Positions 4,164 through 64,000 are shown, counted from the first letter of the stretch. The stretch: 64,000 bases of DNA from Bacteroidales bacterium (GCA_017615595.1 JAFZZT010000036.1:39035-103034); one strand, 5' to 3'. Made by a program: numbers and translations. The notes: generated by a model from the letters alone, not told the origin.

Positions 4164-4253
4164 AGACTTAACAAGCGGATTTGCTCGGGGCTAACGCCCC
4201 TCGCGTTGCAAAAATGTTTATCTTTGTTGCGACTTACTATCGCAAAATATTGC

Positions 4254-4261
4254 TATTTTTG
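4254..4261 (+). promoter_or_regulatory. Bacteroidota -7 promoter box (TATTTTTG) upstream of lpdA
   Basis: Matches the TAnnTTTG consensus about 52 nt upstream of the ATG. A second match, TATCTTTG, lies at 4219-4226. Confidence 0.45.
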
Positions 4262-4312
4262 CACCGCATATTTTGGATGCAAGATTTTTAATGTTACACC
4301 TTATAAAAGATA

Positions 4313-14410: not shown

Positions 14411-14418
14411 AAAGTCGG

Positions 14419-14426
14419 CAAAGATA
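14419..14426 (-). promoter_or_regulatory. -7 promoter box (TATCTTTG) for the barrel/lipoprotein operon
   Basis: The complement of caaagata matches TAnnTTTG and sits just upstream of the start at 14410. Confidence 0.45.
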
Positions 14427-14427
14427 C

Positions 14428-14460
14428 AAAAAAAGCGGTCAACCAGTGACCGCTTTTTTT
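14428..14460 (-). terminator. intrinsic terminator downstream of rpsA
   Basis: GCGGTCA-accag-TGACCGC: a 7-bp stem flanked by A7 and T7 runs, 18 nt after the rpsA stop. Confidence 0.65.
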
Positions 14461-14477
14461 CATCTTTCAGAAAGAGA

Positions 14478-50014: not shown

Positions 50015-52349
50015 GTTTCACGAACGGGGTGGCCGTCATATTGGATTCCACGCGGAGGAAATAGGCACCGGCAGGGAGGCGACTCACATCCACGGTGTTG
50101 CTGCCGCCTTTCAGCTTCACGGTCTTGACGGTTCGGCCGGCGCTGTCCACGATGGCACACTTGAGCGCCTTACCCTCCTGTTCTATCCAGACATTCAGCT
50201 GGTCATGGACAGGGTTGGGATAGATGATGATGGATGGTTCCTCGCGATTGGCTACGGAAGCATCCACATCGCCCACGGCAAGGCAGTATTGGCCAGCGCG
50301 CAAGGCATCCACCCGCAGGAAGCCCGCATTCGGGGAGCCCGTGCGCGTGGCAGGCACGATCTGCCAGCTGTCAGCAGTCGTGGGACGATAGAGCACCTTG
50401 AGGTTGTTATGGTCGTAGCCCTGCACCAACGCGTAATCCAGTGAGGTGGCGCTGCCCCGCTCGTAACGGAAACGCAGATAGCCCTCCGGAGGCGTCACGC
50501 CGGCAGGATAGGCCAGCTGCACATTCCAGTAGTGATTGTCCGACATCCGATGGATACCCTCCGGCAAGGCGGCGGGCTGGTCCGGACCCACATAGTGATG
50601 CTCGGCACGCACCAGGACAGAATCCGCGAAGGCATCCACCTGGAAAGCACAATAGGCATCCGACCACGTTACGAGTCCGCTGTTGCCCCCTACAGTCGCA
50701 GTGTAATCGACGGTGGCGTCCATCATCTTCTCGTAATAGTCCACCATGCCGAACATCGGCTCAAAAGGAATGGTGACGGTAGCCGTGGCATACTGACCGG
50801 AGAAAAGGACGTCCGGGACAGTATAGAGTGTTCTGTTGGGAGATACGAAGGTAAGATCCAATTTGTTGGAGTTACCGTAGAAATTGGCACCGCAGTGTTT
50901 CTGCTGCAGGAAGACCTCATATTGATTGCCCGCAAGATGACGGATGGAGTCGATGGCGAACTGCGGGAAGCCGGGCGTGTGCACCCAGTTGGCGTAGAAA
51001 TCGGCCAGGCTCACGCCCGTGACCTGCGACAGGTAGTTGAAGAACTCTTCGGAGTTGACATTCTGATAAGCATAATGGTCGAGCAAGGAGCGCAAGCCGC
51101 CGAAGAAGAGCGAATCGCCGAGATAGCTGCGCAGGGTTTGGATGACGAGGGCGCCCTTGTCGTAGGAGTGCGTGCCATAGGTCACCGCCTGCGGCACCGC
51201 ATCCAGCGCGTAGTGGTCGCCGTCATTCTTGACGATATCCTTCAGCGTGGAGTGATGCATATCGCGGAGATAGTCGAGATAGGCCGTTTCAGGATCGTTG
51301 GGGTTGAGGAGCGCCATCACCAGCGGCTCGGCGAAGGAGGCAAAGCCCTCGTTGATCCACATCTCCTCGGGCCGCTCGCAGGTGATGAGGTCGCCAAACC
51401 AGTGATGGAAGAGCTCGTGACCATAGAGCGTGACGTAGGTATCGGTGCCGTTCACAAAGCTCTTGGGATAGGCAATGTTGGTGGCATGCTCCATGGCACC
51501 GCTGGAGAAGTTCACATCCACATAGCCGACACGGGGCCAGCGGTAGGGACCGAAATAGTACTCGAACATCTGCAAGATATCCTTCAGATGACCATACGAG
51601 GCCGGCACCTGGGCATATTCCGTGGGCTGGGCATAGATCAGGATCGGGATATCGCCCTCCATGCCGTGGAAGGTGTCCTGATAGGCAATGTACTCGCCCA
51701 CCGCCATAGAGGCCAGATAGGTGGGGATGGGCTCTTCCAGTGTCCAAGTCCACACCTTGGAGCTGTCGGCGAGCGTAAGCACATCGGTGAGCATGCCGCC
51801 ACAGACGGCCATCTTGTTCTGTTCAGTGCGGATATGGGTGGTATAGCTCGACTTGTCAGTAAAGACATCCATACAGGGGAACCAGCAGCGCCCGTAACAG
51901 TGGGGTAAGCTCTGGAAAGCCACGCCCATGGTGTAGGCATACTGGCCGGAGAAGTAGAAACCGCCCCATCCAGAGTCCTTGGTGGGCACACCGTGGTAGA
52001 AGACCGTCACCAAGACCGTGTCGCCAGTCTGCATGGTAGGCACCGTGATGGTCAGGCGCTCACCCTGATGGTTAAAGGAGGCGGGCATGCCGTTCACCTT
52101 GACAGAGTCGGTGGTCAGCGCCAGCAAGTCCAGTGCCACCTGATTGACGTTAGGCATCTTGGCGATGATGGTCAGCTGCGCCTCGCCCTCGACATTGTGG
52201 GCGGTGAAGTCCATGATAGTCAGCGACAGATCGTAATGGGCCACATGAAGGGTGTCGCTGCGGTTCTGGGCGGAAAGGGTGAAGGTCAGCAGGATGGTCA
52301 GCAGGGTTGACAACAAAGCGGTTTTCTTGATCATAGCAGTATAATTCAA
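50010..52349 (-). CDS. M1-family zinc aminopeptidase with T9SS type-A C-terminal sorting domain
   Basis: GAMEH plus HELFHHWFGD...WINEGFA (HExxH-x18-E). The C-terminus IIYPNPVHDQLNV...VDVSRLPAGAYFLRV is a Por-secretion-tail pattern. The start may be the ATG at 52334 (MIKKTALL...). Confidence 0.8.
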   Translation of the reverse strand: MNYTAMIKKTALLSTLLTILLTFTLSAQNRSDTLHVAHYDLSLTIMDFTAHNVEGEAQLTIIAKMPNVNQVALDLLALTTDSVKVNGMPASFNHQGERLTITVPTMQTGDTVLVTVFYHGVPTKDSGWGGFYFSGQYAYTMGVAFQSLPHCYGRCWFPCMDVFTDKSSYTTHIRTEQNKMAVCGGMLTDVLTLADSSKVWTWTLEEPIPTYLASMAVGEYIAYQDTFHGMEGDIPILIYAQPTEYAQVPASYGHLKDILQMFEYYFGPYRWPRVGYVDVNFSSGAMEHATNIAYPKSFVNGTDTYVTLYGHELFHHWFGDLITCERPEEMWINEGFASFAEPLVMALLNPNDPETAYLDYLRDMHHSTLKDIVKNDGDHYALDAVPQAVTYGTHSYDKGALVIQTLRSYLGDSLFFGGLRSLLDHYAYQNVNSEEFFNYLSQVTGVSLADFYANWVHTPGFPQFAIDSIRHLAGNQYEVFLQQKHCGANFYGNSNKLDLTFVSPNRTLYTVPDVLFSGQYATATVTIPFEPMFGMVDYYEKMMDATVDYTATVGGNSGLVTWSDAYCAFQVDAFADSVLVRAEHHYVGPDQPAALPEGIHRMSDNHYWNVQLAYPAGVTPPEGYLRFRYERGSATSLDYALVQGYDHNNLKVLYRPTTADSWQIVPATRTGSPNAGFLRVDALRAGQYCLAVGDVDASVANREEPSIIIYPNPVHDQLNVWIEQEGKALKCAIVDSAGRTVKTVKLKGGSNTVDVSRLPAGAYFLRVESNMTATPFVKR

Positions 52350-52390
52350 CGTTCAGGCCACAGACGTAGTGACCATTTTTTTCAAAGGCG

Positions 52391-52398
52391 CAAAGATA
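52391..52398 (-). promoter_or_regulatory. -7 promoter box (TATCTTTG) for M1 peptidase gene
   Basis: Complement of caaagata. It sits back-to-back with the plus-strand box at 52409-52416. Confidence 0.45.
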
Positions 52399-52408
52399 AA
52401 AAAAAATG

Positions 52409-52416
52409 TATTTTTG
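52409..52416 (+). promoter_or_regulatory. -7 promoter box (TATTTTTG) for WG-repeat gene
   Basis: TAnnTTTG match 42 nt upstream of the ATG at 52458. Confidence 0.45.
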
Positions 52417-52457
52417 CAGTCAAGATATCTTAATATCACATTTAAACCTTATTCATT

Positions 52458-53765
52458 ATGAAAAAATCACTATTGTTTTTCGCTTGGATTCTTATCATAT
52501 TAGGTGTCTCGGCCCAAACGCCCAAGCCTTTGACTATCACCGAGAACACGCATTTTGTCGTCCTCCCCAACGACTGTGAGAGCATCTCATGGCTTGTGGA
52601 TGGCATCTGGTCGGTGGAGCGCTACAACAAGTATGCCTTCTACAACGTACAAGGCCAGCGCATTTTCGACTTCGAATGGGAAGCGGGGTCCGGTTACCGC
52701 GAACCCCTGATGGTCGGCGGCGCCGTCCTGATGTACAAGAAGGAAGAGGTCAACAGCCAGAAACCGATGTGGCTGCTTAAGAGCGACGGCACCTCCAAGG
52801 CGCTACCGGCGGAATATGTCGGACCCGCCACCAATTTTGTGGACGGCGTGGCGCTTATCGGGAAAAAGAAAAGTTCCGGTTATGGCATTGAATATGTCTA
52901 TATCAACCTTAACGGCCAGCGAGTCTATGGCACGCTGACCTCCAGTCCAGAACGCTTTGAGCGCACCAACTGGACGGTTCCACCTTTGCGCGAGGGGTTG
53001 AGAGCATTCAAGCAGCTGAACCCCAGCGGTTTTGGCGGCAAATGGGGTTATATTGACGCCAACGGCAAGGTGGTGATCCCCGCCCGCTACGACGAATGCC
53101 GTTCCTTCAGCGAAGGGTACGCCTTGGTACGGGAAGACCGCGAATTATACTTCATCGACAAAAACGGCAACAAGGCCATTGAGCCCATCTGGGATGACGA
53201 CACCTATTTCAACGACATCAGCGATGTTCACAACGGCTATTTCGTCGTGAACTACAACCCTCGCAAATACTTCAACACCCAGGGCGATCTAGTGAAAAAA
53301 CTACCGGGAGGATCCATGTTCTACAACGGCTATTGCTTTGCCGAGGATGAGACAGCGTTCAATGGGAAAAGCCGGGTGTTCGACAAGGATTTCAACCTCG
53401 TGAAAACCATCCCGGAGGTGGATCTTTGGTGGAACGACGAGGGCAACGCGCCCATCTTCACGGCGGCAGGAGTGGCGACCGTGCAACGGGAACGAGTGAT
53501 TTCCACAGACGGCACCACGCTGATCCAGCACTTCCCCGTGACGAAAAAATCGCCCAACCGGAATGGCATCGAATATTTCTCCCCGTCCGGGTTTGCCAAG
53601 GCCTGGCTCGTGCATAACGGCGAGACCTACGAAGGGTTCATCAACCTAGACGGCGAGTTCGTGCTCATCTACCGTTGGAACCGGGAGGTGGTCCCCATCG
53701 TGAACGACCCGAACAATCCTTCCCCCTGCGACACCTGCAAGATATTCCCCAATCCTGTCCGGTAA
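52458..53765 (+). CDS. WG-repeat (KWG) containing secreted protein
   Basis: Signal peptide. Repeated modules of type KWGYIDANGKVVIPARYDECRSFSEGYALV and YFIDKNGNKAIEPIWDD. Confidence 0.75.
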   Translation: MKKSLLFFAWILIILGVSAQTPKPLTITENTHFVVLPNDCESISWLVDGIWSVERYNKYAFYNVQGQRIFDFEWEAGSGYREPLMVGGAVLMYKKEEVNSQKPMWLLKSDGTSKALPAEYVGPATNFVDGVALIGKKKSSGYGIEYVYINLNGQRVYGTLTSSPERFERTNWTVPPLREGLRAFKQLNPSGFGGKWGYIDANGKVVIPARYDECRSFSEGYALVREDRELYFIDKNGNKAIEPIWDDDTYFNDISDVHNGYFVVNYNPRKYFNTQGDLVKKLPGGSMFYNGYCFAEDETAFNGKSRVFDKDFNLVKTIPEVDLWWNDEGNAPIFTAAGVATVQRERVISTDGTTLIQHFPVTKKSPNRNGIEYFSPSGFAKAWLVHNGETYEGFINLDGEFVLIYRWNREVVPIVNDPNNPSPCDTCKIFPNPVR

Positions 53766-53791
53766 TCAGCGAACAGGAATCAGTGAACAGG
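53764..53791. repeat. 2 x 14-bp tandem unit (AATCAGCGAACAGG AATCAGTGAACAGG)
   Basis: Read directly. Overlaps the WG-repeat gene stop and marks the left edge of the accessory island. Confidence 0.85.
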
Positions 53792-53816
53792 AAGCCTAAT
53801 ACGACGCCGCACGCCG

Positions 53817-54218
53817 TTAGATGTGCGGGGAAAAAGAAGGGCAGCGGGGCGATTTCATCCCCATGCCCGCGCCCGTGAGGTTCGCACTGCCCACGTAACA
53901 GACCGTCTGGTCGATAACGATGATCTTGAAATGCACCCTCGGGCACATCACCCGTTCCAGCATCTTAGCCAATCGCGGGTAGCGGTCGAAGTCGGCGCGG
54001 AAGTTCGGTCCCGGTTCCTTCGCATGGATAAGCCGCACCTCCACGCCCTTGCCGAGCAAGTCGGCCAGCACCCCGAGAAACGGTTTCTCGGTTTTCCCCT
54101 GCAGCACGTACAGGTCTTTGATGTCAGCCGTGCCGATCCACAGACTGCGCTTGGCCTTCATCGCAAGGTCAAGGACGGTGGTGTAGTGGGAGGTGTCGGT
54201 GATGAGGGTGGTGGGCAT
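53817..54218 (-). CDS. single-HKD (PLD-like) nuclease paralog A, with C-terminal about 45 aa replaced by an unrelated 8-aa tail (possibly a pseudogene)
   Basis: 119/125 aa identical to paralog B through ...HFKIIVIDQTVCYVGSANLTGAGMGMKSPR (HxKx4Dx6GSxN intact). It then diverges (CPSFSPHI*) exactly where the 427-bp DNA repeat ends. Confidence 0.7.
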   Translation of the reverse strand: MPTTLITDTSHYTTVLDLAMKAKRSLWIGTADIKDLYVLQGKTEKPFLGVLADLLGKGVEVRLIHAKEPGPNFRADFDRYPRLAKMLERVMCPRVHFKIIVIDQTVCYVGSANLTGAGMGMKSPRCPSFSPHI

Positions 54219-54270
54219 GGCGGTTAGGATTTATATGCGGCAAAAATAGTACATTTTCTGATTGGCTTAC
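53844..54270. repeat. 427-bp direct repeat, copy A (5' 3/4 of HKD gene plus its promoter)
   Basis: Aligns base-for-base without indels, with scattered substitutions, to 55791-56217. Offset 1947 bp. Confidence 0.9.
54241..54248 (-). promoter_or_regulatory. -7 promoter box (TATTTTTG) of HKD paralog A
   Basis: Complement of caaaaata within the repeated promoter segment ...CTATTTTTGCCGCATATAAATCC... Confidence 0.45.
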
Positions 54271-55517
54271 TGTAAACACCATCGATAGAAGGGAATCACA
54301 TGTATAACTCCTCCGTCAGAAAATTCATTCTCTTCAGTCTCGTCCAGTGTGATAATGGTGCCTTCACGCAGACCAAACACCTTCATGGCTGCCAGCAAGC
54401 CTTCTTCTTCCCGCTTTCTTGTCTCTGGATTCTTCAGAGAAACAGCAACTTGCAACGCTTGCTCGACAATTCCATTTTTCCGGATTATAAAGTCACACTC
54501 ATTACCATCATGAAAATAGTACGACTCCATCTCTCGTCTTCTCAATTCAACATATACTGCATTTTCAAGTTTCTTTCCGAGATTTTCGCTAAAAGTGAAT
54601 CCCACTTGCGACACCAAACCATTGTCAATGAAATAGGCTTTCCTAGGACTTTTGATCTGCTCGCCAACTTTGTAGTCGTATTTGGTTAACACGCCCACCA
54701 GATAACACTCCTCCAAATAGCCGATGTATGCATTTATTGTATCGGGACTCTTTATTTTAGTGGCTTTTGCGATAGATTGATAAGTGAATTTATGGGTGAA
54801 GTTGCTGGCCAAGAAGTATGCCACCTCCTTAATGGGCTTTTCCGAAGGCAGTTTATGCCTCACTACGATGTCGCGAAAGATGATGTCGTTGTATAGTTCT
54901 CGCAAGTAACGCGGATCTCCAGTACTCAAATATTGAGGAAATCCTCCCTCTTTCAGAAATCCCGATTGTAGATTTGTTAGCATTGCGCGTCCTTCGGTGG
55001 TGTAGAAGTCCTTTGGTTTTATGCCGAATCCTTTGATTGACATATATTCGGAGAGGGACATCGGATAAAGTTCCTGTGTCAGATGGCGTCCCGTCAGCAG
55101 TGTTCCCAACTCTTTGCTCAACATAAATGCATTACTTCCTGTGACATAGACCTTGTTGCCATGTTTGTGAAGTCGTTCCACGAATCGTTCCCATCCCGTA
55201 ATAAGTTGCGGCTCATCAAGATAGAATGTGTGTTGAACTCCAAAATCCTCCATAAAAACATCATATAGAAGCTGAAAATCTTCTACGGAAAAATGAATGA
55301 GGCGGTCATCGTCAAAACTCATGTAATAATCCTGTTCCGATTGTCTGGCTCTGATTTGCTGCATCAACACCGACTTTCCGCAACGTCTCACGCCTGAAAT
55401 CACCATTATTCCAGATGATGCTGGCCAGTTGACATCTACATTCCTTTCAACACCGAGATCTTGATATAGTTCTCGTTGCTCGTATAAGACTTGCCGTAAT
55501 AATTCCTTAGACACCAT
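54267..55517 (-). CDS. AAA-ATPase (AAA_14-type) with DUF4143 / PD-(D/E)XK-like C-terminal domain
   Basis: Walker A SGVRRCGKS and Walker B FYLDEPQ. The C-terminus ...VYVELRR...GNECDFIIRK has a restriction-endonuclease-like E-x-D...K pattern. It is markedly more AT-rich than its neighbours. The start is trimmed to the ATG at 55517 because the -7 box covers the listed TTG start. Confidence 0.8.
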   Translation of the reverse strand: MVSKELLRQVLYEQRELYQDLGVERNVDVNWPASSGIMVISGVRRCGKSVLMQQIRARQSEQDYYMSFDDDRLIHFSVEDFQLLYDVFMEDFGVQHTFYLDEPQLITGWERFVERLHKHGNKVYVTGSNAFMLSKELGTLLTGRHLTQELYPMSLSEYMSIKGFGIKPKDFYTTEGRAMLTNLQSGFLKEGGFPQYLSTGDPRYLRELYNDIIFRDIVVRHKLPSEKPIKEVAYFLASNFTHKFTYQSIAKATKIKSPDTINAYIGYLEECYLVGVLTKYDYKVGEQIKSPRKAYFIDNGLVSQVGFTFSENLGKKLENAVYVELRRREMESYYFHDGNECDFIIRKNGIVEQALQVAVSLKNPETRKREEEGLLAAMKVFGLREGTIITLDETEENEFSDGGVIHVIPFYRWCLQ

Positions 55518-55541
55518 ATCTTTGTATTTTATATTAGGCTG

Positions 55542-55549
55542 CAAAAATA
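55542..55549 (-). promoter_or_regulatory. -7 promoter box (TATTTTTG) for the ATPase gene
   Basis: Complement of caaaaata, 25 nt upstream of the ATG at 55517. Confidence 0.45.
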
Positions 55550-55559
55550 AAAAAAATCC

Positions 55560-55603
55560 ATATTGACAATCCTTATTTTTTTATAAAAATCAATATTGAC
55601 AAT
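55560..55603. promoter_or_regulatory. pair of direct repeats ATATTGACAAT spaced 33 bp, upstream of the ATPase promoter (candidate operator)
   Basis: An identical 11-mer occurs at 55560-55570 and 55593-55603. Confidence 0.35.
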
Positions 55604-55649
55604 ATAGATTGTATTTCTAACGGTGATTTCACAATCATCATTCCCTGAT

Positions 55650-56165
55650 TCACTCTATCGGGTCCGGGCACACGTTCCTTCGCTGGCACTGCGCGCACTC
55701 GCTTCCGCGCCACACCTTGTCGAACTCCTCGATGGCGGCGGCCACGATGGAGGGTTCGTCGGTGAGGATGCCGGCTTCGAAGTTGCGACGGCGGGGCGAC
55801 TTCATCCCCATGCCCGCTCCCGTGAGGTTCGCGCTGCCCACATAGCAAACGGTCTGGTCGATGACGATGATCTTGAAGTGCACTCGCGGGCACATCACCC
55901 GTTCCAGTAGTTTGGAGAGCCGCGGGTAGCGGTCGAAGTCGGCACGGAAGTTCGGTCCCGGTTCCTTCGCGTGGATCAGCCGCACCTCCACGCCCTTTCC
56001 GAGTAACTCCGCCAGCACCCCGAGGAACGGCTTCTCGGTACCGCCCTGCAGCACGTGCAGGTCCTTGATGTCGGCGGTGCCGATCCACAGCGAGTGCTTG
56101 GCCTTCATCGCGAGGTCAAGCACGGTGGTGTAGTGGGAGGTGTCGGTGATGAGGGTGGTGGGCAT
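55650..56165 (-). CDS. single-HKD (PLD-like) nuclease paralog B, full length (171 aa) with Cys-containing tail
   Basis: HKD motif HFKIIVIDQTVCYVGSANLTGAG. No signal peptide. The C-terminal tail ...FEAGILTDEPSIVAAAIEEFDKVWRGSECAQCQRRNVCPDPIE contains CxxCx5C. Confidence 0.8.
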   Translation of the reverse strand: MPTTLITDTSHYTTVLDLAMKAKHSLWIGTADIKDLHVLQGGTEKPFLGVLAELLGKGVEVRLIHAKEPGPNFRADFDRYPRLSKLLERVMCPRVHFKIIVIDQTVCYVGSANLTGAGMGMKSPRRRNFEAGILTDEPSIVAAAIEEFDKVWRGSECAQCQRRNVCPDPIE

Positions 56166-56217
56166 GGCGGTTAGGATTTATATGCGGCAAAAATAGTACA
56201 TTTTCTGATTGGCTTAC
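55791..56217. repeat. 427-bp direct repeat, copy B
   Basis: See 53844-54270. Confidence 0.9.
56188..56195 (-). promoter_or_regulatory. -7 promoter box (TATTTTTG) of HKD paralog B
   Basis: Same sequence context as 54241-54248. Confidence 0.45.
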
Positions 56218-56259
56218 AAAAAACTCCGATTTTCGGCAGGGACGCTGGTGTGAAACCAC

Positions 56260-56286
56260 CGGCAAAAATAGCGCATAGGTGTGCAG
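56260..56286 (-). promoter_or_regulatory. orphan copy of island promoter module (CACACCT-N7-GCTATTTTTGCCG) with no ORF behind it
   Basis: The minus strand reads CTGCACACCTATGCGCTATTTTTGCCGG, similar to the modules at 58606-58631 and 61414-61440. It is followed by about 45 nt and a weak hairpin plus T6 (CCGAAAATCGGAGTTTTTT). Confidence 0.4.
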
Positions 56287-56492
56287 GAACGAGTCACAAC
56301 GCGAGATGGCGCACATAACGAGCACTATCACCAATCAAAATGTTGATCTTGCGTTGAAAAATCAAGAAATCCGCGAAAACAATGGCAGTAATTAACAGTT
56401 AAACATTAATTTTTTTTGATAATTTTACAACTTATTGATTGTTAGAGCAAAAAAATAACACCAAAATCCTTGACACCAGCATTTTGTTATAG

Positions 56493-56500
56493 TATATTTG
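56493..56500 (+). promoter_or_regulatory. -7 promoter box (TATATTTG) for the ORF6N gene array
   Basis: TAnnTTTG match 45 nt upstream of the ATG at 56545. A TTGACA hexamer lies 17 nt upstream of TATATT. Confidence 0.45.
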
Positions 56501-56544
56501 TCGTTCAGTTAATAAAAAGTTTTTATTCATCAAAACAACACACT

Positions 56545-57168
56545 ATGACAAATATCTTAGAAGTTGAGAACAGAATGATCACCCTGCGTGGTCAGCAGGT
56601 GATTTTGGATTCAGACGTGGCCGAACTGTACGGGGTGGAAACGAAGCGCATTAATGAGGCCGTCAGCAACAATCCTGGAAAATTCCCCCAAGGGTATGTT
56701 TGGGAATTGGATAAAGCCGAAGTCCTGGCTTTAAGGTCGAAAATTTCGACCTTAAAGAAATCGGGTCGGGGACAACATTCAAAATACCCACCCAAAGCCT
56801 TTACCGAACGGGGGCTCTATATGCTGGCCACCATCTTGAAGAGTCCGAAAGCAGAGGAGACCACCATCGCCATCGTGGAGGCCTACGCGAAGTTAAGGGA
56901 ACTGTCGCGAGTGATGACGGAAATACCACAGCAGGAGGAGAACTCCGTGGAACAGAGAACATTGCTTCAGCGCGGCGGACAGTTGGTGGAGGACCTGATG
57001 ACAGACGTGCTGCCGGTCCAGAGCAGCGAGACCTCCATCGAACTCAACCTCGCAATGTTCAAACTCAAGCATTCCGTGAAGCGGGAGAACGAGGAGGAGG
57101 TGAAGAAACTGCGGGAGGAGATAGCAGAACTCAAACATATTATTAATCATCAAAATAACACACTATGA
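56545..57168 (+). CDS. ORF6N-domain (KilA-N-related DNA-binding) protein, array copy 1
   Basis: MTNILEVENRMITLRGQQVILDSDVAELYGVETKRINEAVSNNPGKFPQGYVWEL matches the ORF6N signature, with a coiled-coil acidic C-half. The true start is the ATG at 56545 (residue 26 of the listed ORF). Confidence 0.8.
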   Translation: MTNILEVENRMITLRGQQVILDSDVAELYGVETKRINEAVSNNPGKFPQGYVWELDKAEVLALRSKISTLKKSGRGQHSKYPPKAFTERGLYMLATILKSPKAEETTIAIVEAYAKLRELSRVMTEIPQQEENSVEQRTLLQRGGQLVEDLMTDVLPVQSSETSIELNLAMFKLKHSVKRENEEEVKKLREEIAELKHIINHQNNTL

Positions 57169-57779
57169 CTAATATCTTAGAAGTAGAAAACAGAATGATC
57201 ACCCTGCGAGGTCAGCAGGTGATTTTGGATTCAGACGTGGCCGAACTGTACGGGGTCCAAACCAAGGAAATCAACCAGGCAGTAAAAAACAACCCTGAGA
57301 AATTCCCAACAGGTTACATCTGGGAGTTGATTGGCGAAGAGAAAGACGAACTGGTCAAAAATTTTGACCGGTTCAACCGTCAGAAGCATTCAACGGTTAT
57401 GCCACAGGCTTTTACCGAGAAAGGACTCTATATGTTGGCCACTATCTTAAAAAGTGAAAAGGCTGTGGAGACCACCATCGCCATCGTGGAGGCCTACGCG
57501 AAGTTAAGGGAACTGTCGCGAGTGATGACGGAAATCCCACAGCAGGAAGAGAACTCCGTGGAACAGAAAACATTGCTTCAGCGCGGCGGACAGCTGGTGG
57601 AGGACCTGATGACAGACGTGCTGCCGGTCCAGAGCAGCGAGACCTCCATCGAACTCAACCTCGCGATGTTCAAACTCAAGCATTCCGTGAAGCGGGAGAA
57701 CGAGGAGGAGGTGAAGAAACTGCGGGAGGAGATAGCAGAACTCAAACATATTATTAATCATCAAAATAACACACTATGA
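57165..57779 (+). CDS. ORF6N-domain protein, array copy 2
   Basis: The start ATG overlaps the copy-1 stop (ATGA). The first 30 and last 100 aa or so are near-identical to copy 1 and the middle has diverged. Confidence 0.8.
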   Translation: MTNILEVENRMITLRGQQVILDSDVAELYGVQTKEINQAVKNNPEKFPTGYIWELIGEEKDELVKNFDRFNRQKHSTVMPQAFTEKGLYMLATILKSEKAVETTIAIVEAYAKLRELSRVMTEIPQQEENSVEQKTLLQRGGQLVEDLMTDVLPVQSSETSIELNLAMFKLKHSVKRENEEEVKKLREEIAELKHIINHQNNTL

Positions 57780-58063
57780 CAAATATTGTAGAAGTAGAAA
57801 ACAGAATGATCACCCTGCGAGGTCAGCAGGTGATTTTGGATTTAGACGTGGCCGAACTGTACGGAGTGGAAACACGCGACATCAACAAATCTGTGAAAAA
57901 CAATCCTGGTAAATTTCCAGAAGGATATATCATTGCTTTGGGATGTAGTGAGAAGAACGAACTGGTGGAAAATTTCCACCGGTTCAATCGACTAAAACAT
58001 TCCACCGTAATGCCCAAAGCCTTTACCGAGCGGGGGGGCTCTATATGCTGGCCACCTTCTTGA
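57776..58063 (+). pseudogene. ORF6N-domain gene, array copy 3, frameshifted and 3'-truncated
   Basis: ATGA overlap with copy 2 and a conserved N-terminus. The frame is lost at a G7 run (58032-58038; copy 1 has G5 at the same spot), and homology ends about 58060 at the convergent terminator. Confidence 0.75.
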
Positions 58064-58066
58064 AAT

Positions 58067-58094
58067 GTAGAGACGTTCCCGGGAAAGTCTCTAC
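58067..58094. terminator. hairpin between convergent ORF6N-3 remnant and exonuclease gene
   Basis: GTAGAGAC-gttcccgggaaa-GTCTCTAC: an 8-bp stem whose loop contains the palindrome TTCCCGGGAA. It includes the exonuclease stop codon. Confidence 0.5.
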
Positions 58095-58585
58095 AATAAT
58101 TGTAACGCAATCTTTGCACACGCCTCCGCGTCGGCGAGGGCGTGGTGGTGGTTCGTCATGGGACAGCCGCAGGCCGCCGCCACAGTGTGCAGCTGGTGGT
58201 TGGGCAACCGCCGCCCGAAACGTCTCCGCGAGGCACGGCACGTGCAAAGGAACTGATAGTCAGGATAGTCCATTTGATAGACCTGGAACACCGCTTTGAG
58301 ACAGCCCTCATCAAAGGGACTGTTGTGCGCCACCAAAGGCAAACCCTCGATTAAAGGCTCGATTTGCCGCCATACGTCGGGGAACACCGGCGCGTTGTCC
58401 GTGTCCTCGTGCGTGAGACCGTGTACCTCCTGACAGAACCAGGCGTAGTAGTCGGGTTCGGGCTTGATGAGCGAGTAGAACGTGTCGGTGATGAGGCCGT
58501 TACGCACGACTACCACCCCCACGCTGCACACGCTGCTACGCTGTCCGTTGGCGGTCTCGAAATCAATGGCGGCAAAATCGGTCAT
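58091..58585 (-). CDS. stand-alone DEDDh 3'-5' exonuclease (DnaQ/epsilon-like)
   Basis: ExoI AIDFETAN, ExoII AHNSPFDEGCL, ExoIII HHALADAEA. The start is set to the ATG at 58585 because the -7 box at 58609-58616 overlaps the listed TTG start. Confidence 0.8.
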   Translation of the reverse strand: MTDFAAIDFETANGQRSSVCSVGVVVVRNGLITDTFYSLIKPEPDYYAWFCQEVHGLTHEDTDNAPVFPDVWRQIEPLIEGLPLVAHNSPFDEGCLKAVFQVYQMDYPDYQFLCTCRASRRRFGRRLPNHQLHTVAAACGCPMTNHHHALADAEACAKIALQLL

Positions 58586-58605
58586 AGTTACACGTTTCAA
58601 ATCGG

Positions 58606-58631
58606 CGGCAAAGATAGCAAATAGGTGTGTA
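58606..58631 (-). promoter_or_regulatory. island promoter module (CACACCT-N7-GCTATCTTTGCCG) for exonuclease gene
   Basis: The minus strand reads CTTACACACCTATTTGCTATCTTTGCCGCC, with the -7 box at 58609-58616. Confidence 0.5.
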
Positions 58632-58682
58632 AGTTTCGGGCACAGAACAATAGTTCTGTTGAAACATTCGCAAACGGATAAT

Positions 58683-58967
58683 CACACTATCGGATCCGGG
58701 CACCCGTCCCAGCATCTTGGCCAGTCGCGGGTAGCGGTCGAAGTCGGCACGAAAATTCGGTCCCGGTTCCTTAGCGTGAATCAGCCGCGCCTCCACGCCC
58801 TTTCCGAGCAGTTCCGCCAATATCCCGAGGAATGGTTTCTCGGTTTTCCCCTGCAGCACGTAGAGGTCTTTGATGTCGGCGGTGCCAATCCACAGCGAGC
58901 GCTTGGCGCTCATGGCGAGGTCAAGGACGGTGGTGTAGTGGGAAGTGTCGGAGATAAACTGGAACAT
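58683..58967 (-). pseudogene. single-HKD (PLD-like) nuclease paralog C, internally deleted (HKD motif lost, frame shifted)
   Basis: The N-terminal 88 aa or so are homologous to A/B (SDTSHYTTVLDLAM...RADFDRYPRLAKML). Sequence then jumps directly to the last 17 nt or so of the paralog-B gene (ctatcggatccgggcac). The junction sits on a GGGCAC motif that occurs at both ends of the missing segment in B. Confidence 0.75.
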
Positions 58968-59181
58968 AGCAAGTTAATTAACAGGAATAATTTCGTTAGC
59001 TCTTCACTTTATCGCGATTGATCAGGTCGCACTCTTCTTGTGGTTATTTATGTAACATCTAACTTTTAATCCTGCAAAACTACAAAATAATACCTTCTTC
59101 CCACAAATAAATTAACACTACTAGGATTGTGTATATTATTTAAATGGAATAACGCACCAGTATGCAAAGATTTGGCACAAC

Positions 59182-60312
59182 CTATCTCTCCAGCTCCTCG
59201 CACGCAGCGAGCACGTTCTCGCCAAGGGTTGTTGTGTCCGGGAGATGTATCTTTCGTAACTTTTTGCAGCCGCAGAAGGCCCAGTCACCAATGTGTGTGA
59301 CGGATTCGGGGATATGAATTTCCTCAAAGGATTCGCATTGATAAAACGCCCATTCGCCAATGCTGAGCAAAGAGTCGGAGAAGTGGAGACTTTGCAATTT
59401 CCGGCAACCTTTGAAGGCGCTCTCCCCGATATGGGTCACGGTGGCGGGCAGGATGACCTTCTGCAGCTGCGCACATCCTCCGAAAGCCCAGTCTCCGACC
59501 TCCTTCACGAATGCTGGCACCCCTACCTCCATCTCGTTGCCGAAATAAGATATCAAGCGGCCCGTCTGCTTGTCAATCAGCATATTGTTCATCACCACGA
59601 AGTTTGGCGAATGGTTTACAACACATACGTTGCAACATCGTAGGAATGGATTCACCCCAATGCGCTCCACCGTTTCCGGAATCGTCACTTCGCGCAACTT
59701 CTTGCACGAGGCGAAAGCCCTGTCTTCAATGTGCGTCACGGAATCGGGAATCTTGTACATCACAAGTGTGTCTTGACGGTCAGAGCCGGGCTTTGGCCCA
59801 GCAATTATCTCCGCCACTCGTCGGTCCATATCTTCCAAGAAGTCTATCAACGGCGTGTTGCCATCAGTATGGGCAATATCCTCCTGCATATCAATGACGT
59901 GTATGTCGTCCACGCCCAGAAAATGTTTGTCGGGCAAGTCATACAGTTTGGAATTAAGTTGAGGCGGTAAAATGTAGATAAGATGTCTCCTGATATTGGC
60001 GTGATGCGCCTTGCACCACACCAAATTCACCCCGATGGCCCCAAGTTGCAACTCCATGTTTGAGTATCCTTTCATATTTGGATTGGGATGTGGTTTGCGC
60101 ACCATATTCGATGGCGAGTCCCACACCAGGAGCCACACCTCCACAGGTGGGTTGTAGGGGCCGTCTTCAGCGCTGTAGAGATACTTTCTCACAAAAACCG
60201 CGCTCTCCATCCATTCGTATGTGTGTGACGAAGGCATTTGTTGCATAATGCCCTCTTTGCTTTGCGCAGCGTTGAAGCCTATCGGGATGATGATGTGTTT
60301 CGTTCTGTCCAT
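59182..60312 (-). CDS. cytoplasmic protein with unknown about 190-aa N-domain and BspA-type leucine-rich repeats
   Basis: The C-half has repeats of the type IPDSVTHIEDRAFASCKKLREVTIP, LPATVTHIGESAFKGCRKLQSL and IPESVTHIGDWAFCGCKKLRKI. No signal peptide. The start is set to the ATG at 60312 (MDRTKH...), downstream of the -7 box at 60338-60345. Confidence 0.7.
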   Translation of the reverse strand: MDRTKHIIIPIGFNAAQSKEGIMQQMPSSHTYEWMESAVFVRKYLYSAEDGPYNPPVEVWLLVWDSPSNMVRKPHPNPNMKGYSNMELQLGAIGVNLVWCKAHHANIRRHLIYILPPQLNSKLYDLPDKHFLGVDDIHVIDMQEDIAHTDGNTPLIDFLEDMDRRVAEIIAGPKPGSDRQDTLVMYKIPDSVTHIEDRAFASCKKLREVTIPETVERIGVNPFLRCCNVCVVNHSPNFVVMNNMLIDKQTGRLISYFGNEMEVGVPAFVKEVGDWAFGGCAQLQKVILPATVTHIGESAFKGCRKLQSLHFSDSLLSIGEWAFYQCESFEEIHIPESVTHIGDWAFCGCKKLRKIHLPDTTTLGENVLAACEELER

Positions 60313-60337
60313 TGTCTGGTTGTTTGAATTGTTGGGG

Positions 60338-60345
60338 CAAAGATA
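60338..60345 (-). promoter_or_regulatory. -7 promoter box (TATCTTTG) for LRR gene
   Basis: The minus strand reads GGTGTGTTATCTTTGCCCC, 26 nt upstream of the ATG at 60312. Confidence 0.45.
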
Positions 60346-60376
60346 ACACACCGTTGCGCCAAAACGTGGCACTGCA

Positions 60377-61012
60377 TCATTCCCCCGTCACCACCTCCAT
60401 GGTGATTTCCGTGCGGAAGTCCCGGACGAAGATGAAGTCCGTGAGGGCGAAGTGGGTGTGGTCGAAAAGATGGTGGAACGCGCTGATGAGGTGCAGGTCT
60501 TTGGTGAGTTCCGGGTCCAGTCCTTCGTTCCAGTTGGGCGGCGGACAAGTCATCCCGATGAAGTCGTCGAACGATTCGCGGAAGTCGCTGGGGAGAGTCA
60601 GCGTGGAGAGGGACACGCCGTCCTCGTACAGCGGATTGTAGCCGCTGTCGCGGAGCGCACACCACAGCTCGTCACGCGAGTCGTTTTGCAAGGGGTGCAG
60701 CGGGGGATAGTTGCCGCTGAGGTAGCATCGGGCGGTGACTTCCAGATGTTCGCCGTAGTCGCAGGAGAGCGTGTCGCGATAGATGCGGCGGGCGGTTTCG
60801 TACATTTCCGACAACGCCTCCCGCAGCGCTTCGTTGAAGGCGATGATGTCGGGGAGCAGATCTTGCTGGTGCATCAATGCCTGCCGGTTGAGGAGCACCT
60901 TGCGCAGCGTCAGCAGGTTTTGGTGCTCGGTGTAATCGATTTTTCCATCGTAATAGGTCTGGATGATTTCCTGTTCGATGCATTCAATTACATAATCGTC
61001 GTAATGGATCAT
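60377..61012 (-). CDS. hypothetical acidic protein (211 aa), no recognisable domain
   Basis: A clean ORF with codon usage like its neighbours, 45 nt downstream of the preceding gene with no promoter box between. Confidence 0.5.
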   Translation of the reverse strand: MIHYDDYVIECIEQEIIQTYYDGKIDYTEHQNLLTLRKVLLNRQALMHQQDLLPDIIAFNEALREALSEMYETARRIYRDTLSCDYGEHLEVTARCYLSGNYPPLHPLQNDSRDELWCALRDSGYNPLYEDGVSLSTLTLPSDFRESFDDFIGMTCPPPNWNEGLDPELTKDLHLISAFHHLFDHTHFALTDFIFVRDFRTEITMEVVTGE

Positions 61013-61057
61013 AGTTTTTGGGTTTTATTGGGTTTAAAATCTAATCATGCACAGCTT

Positions 61058-61390
61058 TTACAGCCACAAATTCTTGAAATGTTGGCAGAAGAGTCTCAGA
61101 CCTTCTTGGATGAGGGCTTCCTGCTCCTCTTCCGATAGATGCGGGTCGCGGAGTTCTGGGCAACGGCAGTCGGCAAGCAGATCGAAGGCACGGATCATCG
61201 TGCGCAGGGCTGCCTGCCACTCTTTTTCATTGCGGAAAGATGCGCCGGGGAAAGACGGATAACGTCGTTTGGTTGCCTCCAGAAACCGCCGCAGCTGTGT
61301 GGCGATATGATCCGCAAGCGTGTGATACAGATCCCACATATCCGCGTAGGTTTCCTCCTCTTTCTTGGTTTTTTGCCGGTTGTTTGCCAT
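61058..61390 (-). CDS. hypothetical helical protein (110 aa)
   Basis: The ATG at 61390 (MANNRQKTKKEEE...) lies 27 nt downstream of the promoter module. The longer listed ORF would start inside the promoter. Confidence 0.45.
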   Translation of the reverse strand: MANNRQKTKKEEETYADMWDLYHTLADHIATQLRRFLEATKRRYPSFPGASFRNEKEWQAALRTMIRAFDLLADCRCPELRDPHLSEEEQEALIQEGLRLFCQHFKNLWL

Positions 61391-61413
61391 AGGGTAGGAT
61401 GTTTTGTTCAACG

Positions 61414-61440
61414 CGGCAAAAATAGCGAGCAGGTGTGCGA
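61414..61440 (-). promoter_or_regulatory. island promoter module (CACACCT-N7-GCTATTTTTGCCG)
   Basis: The minus strand reads CTCGCACACCTGCTCGCTATTTTTGCCGCG, with the -7 box at 61417-61424. Confidence 0.5.
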
Positions 61441-61467
61441 GAATATAGCACAGTTGGCAGTTGACCA

Positions 61468-61525
61468 TTGGCGATTAGCTGTCGGCTACGCTAATGGATT
61501 ATGCCAAAGGCTAATGGCAAATATA
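61468..61525. repeat. degenerate GCTAAT/ATTAGC 7-bp-type tract
   Basis: ccattggcgattagctgtcggctacgctaatggattatgccaaaggctaatggcaaat has the same motif family as 44821-45016 and 49966-50014, but is decayed. Confidence 0.5.
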
Positions 61526-61577
61526 GAGCGTTCCGAATATTTTTGAAATTTTAGGAGTTGTATTCCGAATTTTTTAG

Positions 61578-61585
61578 TATTTTTG
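61578..61585 (+). promoter_or_regulatory. -7 promoter box (TATTTTTG) for second ATPase gene
   Basis: TAnnTTTG match 16 nt upstream of the ATG at 61601. It covers the listed TTG start at 61583. Confidence 0.45.
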
Positions 61586-61600
61586 CGCTCAAATTCTAAA

Positions 61601-62767
61601 ATGATGTTCAAAAGACTTTTAAACGAAAAGGCCCTTACATTAGATAGCACTTTCCTCTTCGGGGCAAGACAAACGGGCAAAACCACATTGCTGCTGGATT
61701 TGTTTCCAAATGCCCTGTTTTACGATTTATTGGAAAACAACACCTTCGAGCGCCTGCAGCGGAATCCGTCACTGCTGAGACAGGATTTGGAGATGTGCGA
61801 TTCATCCACTTTAGTGATTATCGACGAAGTGCAGTCGTTGCCTGTCCTTCTCAATGAGGTGCAGTGGCTTATGGTGCGAAAAGGCATCCGTTTCATTCTT
61901 AGCGGATCAAGTGCGCGCAAGCTCAAGCGTGGTGGCGCCAATATGCTCGGCGGCAGAGCAATGCAGACGAATCTTTACCCTCTTGTCAGTGCTGAAATAC
62001 CCGACTTTGATCTGATCAAGGCGGTTAACCAAGGCATGATACCCAGACATTATCTTGCTGACGCCGACCGATATTGGCAAATGTTGCAGGCATACGTTGC
62101 CGTATATTTGCGTGAGGAAATCAAAGCAGAAGCTTTGGTACGCAACATGTCCACATTCACTCGCTTTCTCGAGGCTGCGGCTTTAACTGACGGCGAGATG
62201 GTCAATTACAGCAATATAGCGCAGGATTGCGGCGTTGACTCGAAAACTGTTGCGGGCTATTTTTCCATCTTGGAAGAGACCCTGATCGGATATATGATTC
62301 CAGCATTTACCAAGGTGGTGAAACGTAAATTACGGCAAGCTCCACGCTTTTACTTTTTTGACGTCGCCATTCCCAACTATCTGCTTGGACGCCGAGCCCT
62401 GACTCCTGGTTCGGCGGATTTTGGCCACGCCTTCGAACATTTTGTTATTCAAGAGATTGTGGCTTACTTGGGCTATCATCGCATGCTTGAAGCGCTCTCG
62501 TATTGGCACACCTATTCTGATTATGAGGTGGATGCGGTTTTAGGCGATGCCGAAGTGGCTATTGAAATCAAATCAAACAGTGAGGTCCAATCACGACATC
62601 TGCGCGGACTGAAAGCCTTCAAAGAGGAGCATCCCCAATGTCGCCTGATAGCAGTCTCTCTTGACCCTATACCACGCCTGCTCAACGATGTAGAGATATG
62701 GCCGGTCAAGATTTTTCTTAAAAAATTGTGGGATAATGAAATCTATTCAACAGGAACGACACACTAA
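61601..62767 (+). CDS. AAA-ATPase with DUF4143 / PD-(D/E)XK-like C-terminal domain (second, divergent copy)
   Basis: Walker A GARQTGKTTLL and Walker B LVIIDEVQ. The C-terminus has YEVDAVLGDAEVAIEIKS (D...E-x-K). Confidence 0.8.
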   Translation: MMFKRLLNEKALTLDSTFLFGARQTGKTTLLLDLFPNALFYDLLENNTFERLQRNPSLLRQDLEMCDSSTLVIIDEVQSLPVLLNEVQWLMVRKGIRFILSGSSARKLKRGGANMLGGRAMQTNLYPLVSAEIPDFDLIKAVNQGMIPRHYLADADRYWQMLQAYVAVYLREEIKAEALVRNMSTFTRFLEAAALTDGEMVNYSNIAQDCGVDSKTVAGYFSILEETLIGYMIPAFTKVVKRKLRQAPRFYFFDVAIPNYLLGRRALTPGSADFGHAFEHFVIQEIVAYLGYHRMLEALSYWHTYSDYEVDAVLGDAEVAIEIKSNSEVQSRHLRGLKAFKEEHPQCRLIAVSLDPIPRLLNDVEIWPVKIFLKKLWDNEIYSTGTTH

Positions 62768-62803
62768 AACGCACGCACGACTCATTATTTATGAATGAAA
62801 TTT

Positions 62804-62825
62804 TGAAGTAATACTTCAGATTTTT
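62804..62825 (+). terminator. candidate intrinsic terminator of ATPase gene
   Basis: TGAAGT-aat-ACTTCA hairpin followed by GATTTTT, 37 nt after the stop. Confidence 0.4.
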
Positions 62826-62946
62826 CGATAAAATTTGAAGTAACACTCCTTATATTTGCACAAATTATCGGGCTGGGGTTAGATTAATATAGCATTCCCC
62901 TCTCGCAAGAGGTTGTCGTTACCGGCAGTGGTATTTCTCACAATCG

Positions 62947-64000
62947 CTATTCGGCAGCCTTGAAATTGAATACCGGCTTGATGACATTCTCCACCCGCAC
63001 GGTATCCTGAATATTGTTAAGAATCTCATCCATAGATTTATACGCCATCGGCGCTTCATCAAGGGTATCGCTGGTTACGGTTTCGCTATAGATGCCTTCC
63101 ATTGCGCTTTTGAAATCTTCTATCCGCAGTTCCTTGAACGCCTTCGCCCGGCTCATCACGCGCCCGGCCCCGTGCGGTGCGGAGCAGTTCCAGTCCTCGT
63201 TGCCCTTGCCGATGCAGATGAGCGAGCCGTCGCGCATGTTGAGCGGAATAATGCACCGCTCGCCTTCTTGGGCCGAGATGGCCCCTTTCCGGATCAGGTT
63301 GTCGTCGCTGATATAGTTGTGGACACTTTCAAAAGCGCCGTCGGCAATTCCGTTTATGAAAAGGTTTTCTGTGAGGAAATCTGTAATCAGGTCGGCAATA
63401 AGCCGGCGGTTGAGGCGTGCCCAGCGCTGGCAAAGCCGCATGTCGTGCAGGTACTCATTGCGCGGATCGCCCGCCAGATAACAGAGATCGGGCGGCACGG
63501 GCGGGGACTGCATCTTGAAATCGGAATGCAATTTGGCGATAACGGCCTGTATCTCCTTTCTCCTCCCCTGACTTTTGTATTCCTCAATGATTCGTTTTTG
63601 CTGTTCCACCACCTTGTCCCATCCTGAAAGCAGTTTCCGCGCCTCCTTTTGGTACAGGTCGGCCACCTGCTTGCCCAAGTTCCGACTTCCCGTGTGAATC
63701 ACCAGATACCATTTTCCCTGTTCATCGCGGTCGAGTTCAATGAAATGGTTGCCACCGCCCAACGAGCCGATGGATTTGTCCAAACGCTTGCTCTCCTTGA
63801 GAAGCCGGTAGCAGTACAACTCACGGATGATGCTTTTGGCTTCGGAATAGACCTCCATATACTTTTGGGGCAACGGCTGATATTGGTCGCTGCGGAAGTC
63901 GCGCCCCGACGGTATGGCTTTTAGGATAAATGTGTTGAGTGCGTGGAAATCAATTGCGTCCGGCACATCGAGCGGTTGCACGAGGATACCGCAGCCGATG
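62947..64000 (-). CDS. rtcB: RNA ligase RtcB family protein, N-terminus beyond right window edge
   Basis: GGGNHFIELD, HTGSRNLG and APHGAGR motifs. The frame remains open to the window end (...IGCGILVQPLD), so the listed GTG start is internal. Confidence 0.85.
   Translation of the reverse strand, partial: IGCGILVQPLDVPDAIDFHALNTFILKAIPSGRDFRSDQYQPLPQKYMEVYSEAKSIIRELYCYRLLKESKRLDKSIGSLGGGNHFIELDRDEQGKWYLVIHTGSRNLGKQVADLYQKEARKLLSGWDKVVEQQKRIIEEYKSQGRRKEIQAVIAKLHSDFKMQSPPVPPDLCYLAGDPRNEYLHDMRLCQRWARLNRRLIADLITDFLTENLFINGIADGAFESVHNYISDDNLIRKGAISAQEGERCIIPLNMRDGSLICIGKGNEDWNCSAPHGAGRVMSRAKAFKELRIEDFKSAMEGIYSETVTSDTLDEAPMAYKSMDEILNNIQDTVRVENVIKPVFNFKAAE

Follow-up and report, generated by a model that had tools for sequence, protein, structure and literature searches.

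Recurring HKD nuclease genes in a variable accessory region, most probably a defence island, of an uncultured Bacteroidales genome

Introduction

What kind of locus brings several nucleases, ATPases and an RNA ligase together within ten kilobases of a bacterial chromosome? The question is raised by positions 53,817-64,000 of a 64,000-nt stretch of Bacteroidales bacterium DNA (GCA_017615595.1 JAFZZT010000036.1:39035-103034), the whole of which is called the window below. An initial annotation, made from the sequence alone, described the region as an accessory island resembling defence or conflict islands and offered an array of orphan immunity genes as an alternative. The host is an uncultured rumen or gut Bacteroidales, and its nearest species representative is the metagenome-assembled genome (MAG) RGIG7251, whose M1 peptidase is 90% identical at the amino acid level. 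Rumen and gut Bacteroidales are major phage hosts, and their defence repertoire consists mostly of candidate systems.

We listed the open reading frames (ORFs) of the window, scanned them against Pfam and compared the region with fetched metagenome loci, which carry L-numbers (L001 and so on) where they have to be told apart. All genes reported in the initial annotation are present at the coordinates given there: copies of an HKD nuclease gene (HKD_A', HKD_B and HKD_C'), two ATPases with AAA_14 and DUF4143 domains (AAA1 and AAA2), an ORF6N array, a DEDDh exonuclease, a leucine-rich repeat (LRR) protein, proteins of 211 and 110 aa and the RNA ligase RtcB. The region is probably the M1-peptidase-proximal ~10 kb of a larger (at least 17 kb), fast-changing chromosomal defence island, in which cargo exchange would be anchored in resident HKD and DEDDh genes.

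Variability of the site

The congener represented by L008 and L040 (M1 peptidase 90%) carries different cargo at the same site, as located by the M1 peptidase gene: ATPase_2, an ADP-ribosylglycohydrolase, an FtsK-like ATPase, extra LRR genes, PHP, PDDEXK_4, a GyrB-like ATPase and GmrSD_N. Only the DEDDh, LRR, 211-aa, AAA2 and HKD genes are common to both sites, and the WG-repeat gene, AAA1, the ORF6N genes, the 110-aa gene and RtcB are missing from the congener site. Among 29 more distant loci with the M1 peptidase, no island genes were found save ORF6N in two. The region is thus, as had been proposed, an accessory, variable chromosomal site, and its gene order is not core. The gene on its left flank, which encodes a secreted WG-repeat protein (52458-53765, plus strand; Pfam WG_beta_rep), is itself variable. 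Since it is absent at the congener site (L008), it is the M1 peptidase gene, beyond it at the left end, that marks a stable boundary. Decay, insertions and deletions occur even at strain level: the variant L056 (1-2529) combines an HKD gene, an AAA1-like gene that lacks its first ~126 codons and adjoins the WG-repeat gene, and no HKD_A' stub.

On the right, the island continues past the window, as the initial annotation expected. A contig of the same strain (L045) has the order GmrSD_N, GmrSD_N, FtsK-like ATPase, RtcB and then the window genes, an extension of 7 kb that places two GmrSD-family type IV restriction genes just past RtcB. Pfam scans found no recombinase in the window or in this extension, so the statement that no integrase or transposase is visible holds over both; the head of the array lies beyond them. 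Short-read assemblies of the same strain (L001-L004) break within the ORF6N tandem array and within RtcB, and islands of this kind will consequently be under-represented or split in MAGs.

The described mosaic of composition is borne out by codon usage. Compared with a GC content at third codon positions (GC3) of 0.74 +/- 0.095 for the host, AAA1 (0.44), AAA2 (0.52) and the third ORF6N copy (0.47) fall below the host range, whereas the HKD genes (0.82-0.88), DEDDh (0.76), the 211-aa gene (0.80), the WG-repeat gene and RtcB are host-like; the LRR and 110-aa genes are borderline. Overall gene GC in the island spans 42-64%, and the genes lie on both strands, the majority on the minus strand. With its GC3 so far from that of the host, AAA1 is recently acquired cargo. 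RtcB, HKD and DEDDh look like resident genes rather than acquired cargo, because they combine host-like composition with wide conservation, and the 211-aa gene, given its host-like codon usage, may also be resident.

A framework of WYL, DEDDh and HKD genes

With the HKD protein as query, we fetched 80 metagenome loci, clustered their ORFs and annotated the representatives; 63 loci remained after dereplication. These display a repeated one-strand layout: a gene for a WYL-WCX regulator, a DEDDh gene, variable defence cargo and an HKD gene closing the unit. The commonest cargo is a pair of GmrSD and GmrSD_N genes, the former also tagged HEC-06, and other cargo includes PDDEXK_4 (PDC-S26), MoxR-VWA-YgjP, a RecA/KaiC-like pair, AAA_14 (PDC-S01), RhuM-Fic (PDC-S23) and an IetA-like AAA protein. 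Where at least 8 kb of flank is available (37 dereplicated loci), DEDDh occurs in 21 loci, WYL in 22, GmrSD in 15 and RtcB in 8. HKD and its upstream neighbour point the same way in 55 of 60 loci, and the neighbours belong to at least 13 unrelated families. One locus (L130) holds a complete array of 15 co-directional genes, running from WYL to a PIN protein, between core genes; in another (L082) DEDDh adjoins HKD with a gap of ~35 nt; and the bracket of DEDDh, ORF6N and HKD seen in the window recurs in L047, L048 and L051. The window fits a tandem of such WYL-DEDDh-cargo-HKD units, in which DEDDh, ORF6N and HKD_B form one bracket and the transitions from AAA1 to HKD_A' and from the LRR gene to HKD_C' are cargo-then-HKD junctions. 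The original suggestion of a defence or conflict island is strengthened by this comparison in so far as the region is accessory and mosaic and has relatives in more than 60 loci with defence-like neighbours (GmrSD, PDC-S26, PDC-S23, IetA-like, MoxR-VWA-YgjP and WYL); it has to be qualified for RtcB, HKD and DEDDh, with their resident appearance.

We labelled the 70 HKD proteins of a neighbour-joining tree by their upstream partners: closely related HKDs stand behind different cargo, and each cargo type is distributed over several clades. On this scatter of partner types, co-evolution of HKD with its upstream partner is rejected. Since the tree ignores partner type, cargo turns over faster than HKD diverges, and we infer that cargo exchange is anchored by conserved homology in HKD, and probably in DEDDh too, rather than HKD being a co-evolving subunit.

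The copies of the HKD gene in the window display different degrees of completeness. Of the three 171-aa copies initially reported, all three exist and one is intact: HKD_B (55650-56165, minus strand; PLDc_2 and PLDc), the other two being stubs of 125 and 89 codons. HKD_A' (53817-54218, minus strand; PLDc_2 E 3.6e-11) is a 133-aa ORF whose homology extends over 53844-54270, from 52 nt upstream to codon ~125, and is 90% identical at the nucleotide level to 55791-56217. It has kept its own 52-nt promoter and codons 1-125, and its 3' end has been replaced. The divergence between HKD_A' and HKD_B is uneven: a single mismatch over the first 94 nt (52 nt upstream to codon ~15) is followed by ~13% divergence. 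HKD_C' is a pseudogene recognised by homology to HKD, a 5' stub of about codons 1-89 (58701-58967, with HKD homology over codons ~4-89 at 58701-58955) fused to the DEDDh promoter within a chimeric ORF (58563-58967, minus strand); this 134-aa ORF has no HxK motif and no Pfam match. Related loci contain comparable structures. Two full HKD copies surround one 365-aa gene in L034, directly upstream of RtcB, and share a 600-nt repeat of 89.5% identity; in the same locus another cassette follows a 15-codon HKD stub, and stubs occur in several other loci. In an exhaustive search, chimeric ORFs, which join HKD homology to unrelated sequence, made up 56 of the 150 best representatives of HKD clusters.

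A different role for HKD has to be weighed here, namely that of a promiscuous DrmC-like accessory or effector subunit needed by each cargo module, with arrays as tandem cargo-plus-HKD systems and stubs as dead systems. This is unlikely on balance, but it deserves attention because the intergenic gaps are so short: the same-strand upstream gene ends at most 50 nt from the HKD start in 46 of 60 loci, with some overlaps (ATGA). In the window AAA1 is followed by HKD_A' after 48 nt, and pairs of AAA_14 and HKD are found again in L049 and L059-L061. The closest PADLOC and NCBIfam profiles, all weak, are DrmC, MkoB and DpdK, each an accessory PLD nuclease of a defence system. However, the HKD tree does not track partner type, many cargo genes adjoin HKD stubs without the catalytic motif (HKD_C' and HKD_A' among them), HKD_B is served by a promoter of its own and follows no co-directional gene, and the DrmC profile (NF038319) scores 46.8 bits, far under its cut-off of 133.

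In the explanation we favour, the island is a string of small cassettes, several with their own Bacteroidetes-type promoter module. The 171-aa HKD nuclease, the 164-aa DEDDh exonuclease and RtcB, all with host-like codon usage, would be its long-resident framework, and the low-GC genes around them, two AAA_14/DUF4143 genes (PDC-S01) and the ORF6N array (PDC-S05), its recent cargo. Strains and species would swap cargo through homologous recombination within HKD and DEDDh, the conserved genes, and single crossovers and illegitimate joins would give rise to the duplicated HKD copies and 5' stubs. The cassettes may act one by one against phages or other mobile DNA, possibly under common control through a shared palindromic operator-promoter.

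Two further arrangements of the framework genes were observed. At L043 (10001-13845) and in L044, from another species, ligA, the gene for NAD-dependent DNA ligase, is immediately preceded by HKD, a 143-aa gene and DEDDh; the island occupies different chromosomal sites in different species. The array of L127 is headed (2925-4955) by a 676-aa protein with Arm-DNA-bind_5, Phage_int_SAM_5, partial Phage_integrase, WYL and WCX domains, which represents a chimeric ORF or else a fusion between recombinase and regulator.

The HKD protein

The HKD family is very large and uniform in length (170-171 aa), and each of its best 120 clusters has 80% identity or more to the window protein. The motif HxK(x)4D(x)6GSxN is present in HKD_B, and 40 homologues keep its residues H96, K98, D103, G110, S111 and N113 with little or no variation. 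Four cysteines (C92, C157, C160 and C166) are conserved and nearly invariant; they include a C-terminal CxxCx5C, and the cluster suggests a zinc site recalling the Zucchini zinc finger. The AlphaFold (AF2) model of HKD_B has a pLDDT (predicted score in the local distance difference test) of 91, and its best Foldseek matches, with TM scores of 0.6-0.7, are NucT (6ehi; E 1.6e-9, TMt 0.69), Nuc (1byr; TMt 0.69), Zucchini (4ggk) and PLD3. A phmmer search of PDB sequences retrieves only PLD3 (E 0.003). Judging by the predicted fold, the protein very probably acts as a dimeric nuclease, and it has no visible signal peptide.

Promoter modules

TAnnTTTG is the -7 box of Bacteroides promoters and is contained in CACACCT-N4-GCTATNTTTGCCG, a module that occurs three times in the 64 kb, where 0.03 occurrences are expected. 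All three lie in the island on the minus strand, in agreement with the recurring promoter modules reported initially. One (CACACCT-N4-GCTATCTTTGCCG, 58606-58629) is located 20 nt upstream of the DEDDh ATG, another (CACACCT-N4-GCTATTTTTGCCG, 61414-61437) 23 nt upstream of the 110-aa gene, and the third 94 nt upstream of the ATG of HKD_B, whose minus-strand promoter region (56185-56283) has two Bacteroidetes-type -7 boxes (TATTTTTG) with the CACACCT module on the distal one. Upstream of the LRR gene lies a related module, module A (60337-60371, minus strand), made up of the palindrome TGCCACGTTTTGGCG followed by GTGTGTTATCTTTGCC. Because the LRR and 110-aa genes each have a module of their own, the trio of genes ending in the LRR gene, which the initial annotation grouped together, is not an operon; its members are present, and the neighbours of the 211-aa gene vary elsewhere.

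In 70 non-redundant loci (826 kb) the palindrome of module A has 29 occurrences on the HKD strand, spread over 21 of the loci, with less than one expected; the CACACCT motif of the window is found 21 times in 10 loci, always on the HKD strand. The median distance from these modules to an ORF starting with ATG is 34-58 nt. The palindromic TGCCAYGTTTTGGCA followed by a TAnnTTTG box stands before many cassettes of L034 (7468-16524) and L040 (201-15421), and L034 has a second repeated module, CACAATCATTTTTTATGTATCTTTGCGGATTG. Module A was also considered as a sigma-54 promoter and rejected by eye, its -12 GC being off the required spacing. A scan for sigma-70 promoters and terminators, which is unsuited to Bacteroidetes, returned counts near those of shuffled sequences. 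The modules could hypothetically answer to a common regulator, possibly the WYL protein.

Taken furthest, the WYL-DEDDh-cargo-HKD arrays might amount to a distinct Bacteroidales-wide platform, with cassettes captured via HKD and co-regulated by the WYL protein at the head. Each defence cassette would then carry the shared palindromic operator-promoter (TGCCAYGTTTTGGCA ... TAnnTTTG), the HKD gene would act as a protein-coding recombination handle for capture and shuffling, and the WYL protein, in some arrays fused to a tyrosine-recombinase-like domain, would complete a device analogous in function to integrons or rAID-1 but different in mechanism. We regard so far-reaching a reading as doubtful.

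Cargo genes and named defence systems

The two ATPases are only 23% identical to each other. AAA1 (54267-55544, minus strand) matches the PADLOC profile PDLC04787 of PDC-S01 over its full length (E 3.9e-104, residues 42-424) and has no sequence match in the PDB. AAA2 (61601-62767, plus strand) matches PDLC04790 (E 1.8e-52) and PDLC04789 (E 4e-47), also of PDC-S01, and is 94% identical to the copy of the congener (L008). The divergence initially noted between the two is therefore evident, and of the PD-(D/E)XK-like tails ascribed to both, inspection by eye shows the motif in one: AAA2 keeps D...ExK, and AAA1 has Q and A at the positions of E and K, which suggests that its putative nuclease tail may be inactive.

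The ORF6N genes (plus strand; Pfam ORF6N E ~1e-29) form a tandem array with a 611-nt period, encoding proteins of 207 aa (56545-57168), 204 aa (57165-57779) and 95 aa (57776-58063); the array is triple as described, with its third copy truncated. The full copies match PDLC04849 of PDC-S05 with E 2.9e-74 and 5.9e-77 (profile positions 6-182 of 183), and the proteins also match PHROG anti-repressor families. In total PADLOC assigns two window genes to PDC-S01 and three to PDC-S05. DEDDh covers positions 4-163 of 411 of a PDC-S48 profile (411-512 aa), which corresponds to the exonuclease domain alone and falls short of a whole-profile match.

The initial statement that the genes belong to no named system was too strong, given these full-length matches to PDC-S01 and PDC-S05, although both are candidate families. 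PDC families are candidates by guilt-by-embedding, and PDC-S01 says little of function, since no single "defence" locus is more frequent in rumen genomes. DISARM was considered and rejected, with DrmC below its cut-off (46.8 against 133 bits) and no DrmA, DrmB, DrmD/E or DrmM match among the island genes in PADLOC and Pfam. A literature search found nothing specific on the WYL-DEDDh-cargo-HKD architecture, the function of DUF4143, or RtcB or PLD proteins in islands.

The nucleases, the ATPase and the anti-repressor-like genes could alternatively be the accessory load of a decayed integrated mobile element, whether an integrative and conjugative element, a prophage or a satellite. The matches of ORF6N to phage anti-repressors point in this direction, as do the pseudogenes, the low-GC genes, the FtsK-like ATPase and the dnaE-, gyrB- and dprA-like fragments of related islands, which look as if flanks had been carried along. 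Such an origin is nevertheless very improbable. Pfam scans and a repeat search found no integrase, transposase, att-like direct repeats or inverted repeats in the island; inverted repeats of at least 25 nt, as in attC-like or invertible elements, are absent from 52000-64000; and the island has no structural or conjugation genes. An Rfam scan at gathering thresholds and a tRNA scan returned nothing in the island, the only two tRNA genes both being distant. Megablast against 50,697 phage records gave no match to island DNA, and against 72,556 plasmid records a single 161-nt ORF6N match, in a Legionella plasmid.

Stand-alone pieces resembling core genes of DNA metabolism were recorded in L040: DprA-like (3065-3298, 77 aa), like the N-terminal half of GyrB (6309-7388, 359 aa), like the PHP domain of DnaE (7730-8713, 327 aa) and like the FtsK motor (13308-14579, 423 aa). 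A dnaE-like fragment lies near full-length dnaE in L083 and L088.

DEDDh, RtcB and the remaining genes

The stand-alone DEDDh 3'-5' exonuclease (58091-58585, minus strand, 164 aa; RNase_T E 7e-20) was correctly recognised from the outset, and among PDB entries it resembles proofreading exonuclease domains of the PolC/DinG type. RtcB was also rightly named: its C-terminal 350 of ~420 aa lie inside the window (62947 to beyond 64000, minus strand) and match positions 138-425 of PF01139 (E 2.7e-48), the N-terminus falling outside. Its relatives are 420-aa proteins of 82-92% identity, and identity to RtcB of Bacteroides and Parabacteroides is 65-69%. RtcB is conserved across Bacteroidales; it lies at most 10 kb from HKD in the 8 of 37 dereplicated loci counted above and directly downstream of HKD in L034.

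The LRR gene (59182-60312, minus strand) encodes a BspA-type LRR_5 protein (E 5e-40) of 376 aa from MDRTKH, the length also called in L045; no signal peptide is seen by eye. The 211-aa protein (60377-61012, minus strand) belongs to an unnamed conserved family of 1358 homologues of ~212 aa, whose neighbours change from genome to genome. It has no Pfam, NCBIfam, PADLOC or PHROG match, and its AF2 model (pLDDT 83.6, pTM 0.83) no fold match in the PDB or BFVD. The residues E13, D122, D166, H180, H185 and D192 are invariant in the family, a pattern that suggests an enzyme. The 110-aa helical protein (61058-61390, minus strand) is absent from the congener; it had been listed as a 136-aa ORF, and its real start is probably the ATG at 61390. 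The start codons of DEDDh, LRR and AAA2 likewise lie downstream of the first possible start, the true ATG of DEDDh being at 58585 and the called start of AAA2 the ATG at 61601.

Discussion

Several observations weigh against a defence island with exchange anchored in HKD and DEDDh. These two genes and RtcB could be ordinary repair genes merely bordering a hotspot, and DEDDh is directly upstream of ligA in L043 and L044. The short gaps between cargo and HKD also fit HKD as a shared operon subunit. The defence role of the island genes is putative, the PDC families are candidates, and PDC-S01 occurs so widely among rumen genomes that finding it carries little information. In this strain, over the window and its extension, the WYL gene is not seen and neither island boundary is reached. 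ORFs in the 80 loci were called by a crude greedy method, and chimeric ORFs are over-represented among 50% cluster representatives. We still favour this explanation, on account of the variability of the locus, the turnover of cargo against HKD and the recurring structure of the related arrays.

Worth following are three features: the framework of WYL, DEDDh and HKD, the promoter-operator module shared by cassettes, and the 211-aa family with no fold match. If WYL, DEDDh and HKD do mark the places at which defence cargo turns over, they would serve as genomic beacons, and new systems could be mined in thousands of MAGs with their help, as has been done elsewhere with integrases, serine recombinases and BrxR. 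Through the shared operator-promoter module, the activation of an entire island would become accessible to experiment. More than 1300 members, a confident model and the lack of a fold match make the 211-aa family a concrete target for structural and functional work.

Relation to known systems

The rAID-1 arrays of Bacteroidales have an XerD-like tyrosine recombinase at their 5' end, at least two co-directional downstream genes with GC of at most 41% and repetitive intergenic sequences (Ross et al. 2019, 10.1101/471110). The island shares with them the many small genes, the repetitive intergenic sequences and signs that genes are still being acquired, but its cargo consists of nucleases, ATPases and restriction genes instead of toxin-immunity homologues, its strands are mixed and its GC is not low. 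The alternative raised initially, an orphan-immunity or acquired interbacterial defence array in which RtcB would mend RNase damage and the LRR and small proteins would be immunity proteins against contact-dependent toxins, is the least probable of all those considered: the repeated intergenic modules fit it, and gene fragments, the LRR and small helical proteins and the tyrosine-recombinase-like protein fused to WYL at the head of L127 speak for it, but no XerD-like recombinase occurs in the window or the 7-kb extension, gene GC is 42-64% on mixed strands, no island protein has an immunity-family Pfam match (the Bacteroidales type VI secretion immunity set was not searched), and the cargo of related loci is classical anti-phage content. 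An integron was also considered and rejected, there being no IntI integrase and no attC-like inverted repeats.

At the level of the single protein, the window HKD resembles Nuc (pKM101/Salmonella), NucT (H. pylori), Zucchini/PLD6 and DrmC in its ~170-aa single HxK(x)4D...GSxN domain, and its predicted fold matches NucT, Nuc and Zucchini. It differs from the group in having no visible signal peptide, an extra conserved cysteine cluster and very low sequence similarity.

A published account describes WYL regulators of the BrxR/CapW type as co-localising with diverse defence systems and islands (PMC9122601). The present island resembles such WYL-headed islands and hotspots in its clustered, rapidly exchanged defence-type genes at a fixed site, and WYL-WCX genes stand upstream in related arrays. 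Here, in contrast, the bracketing genes are small nucleases (DEDDh and HKD), HKD recurs within the island, both in full and as 5' stubs, and cassettes share an operator-promoter module, with no WYL gene in the window. Among known concepts the island comes nearest to a chromosomal defence hotspot or island, a kind of locus that often has a WYL (BrxR-type) gene at its head. Its accessory nature is real, and it is most probably devoted to defence; it belongs to a known category rather than a new one.

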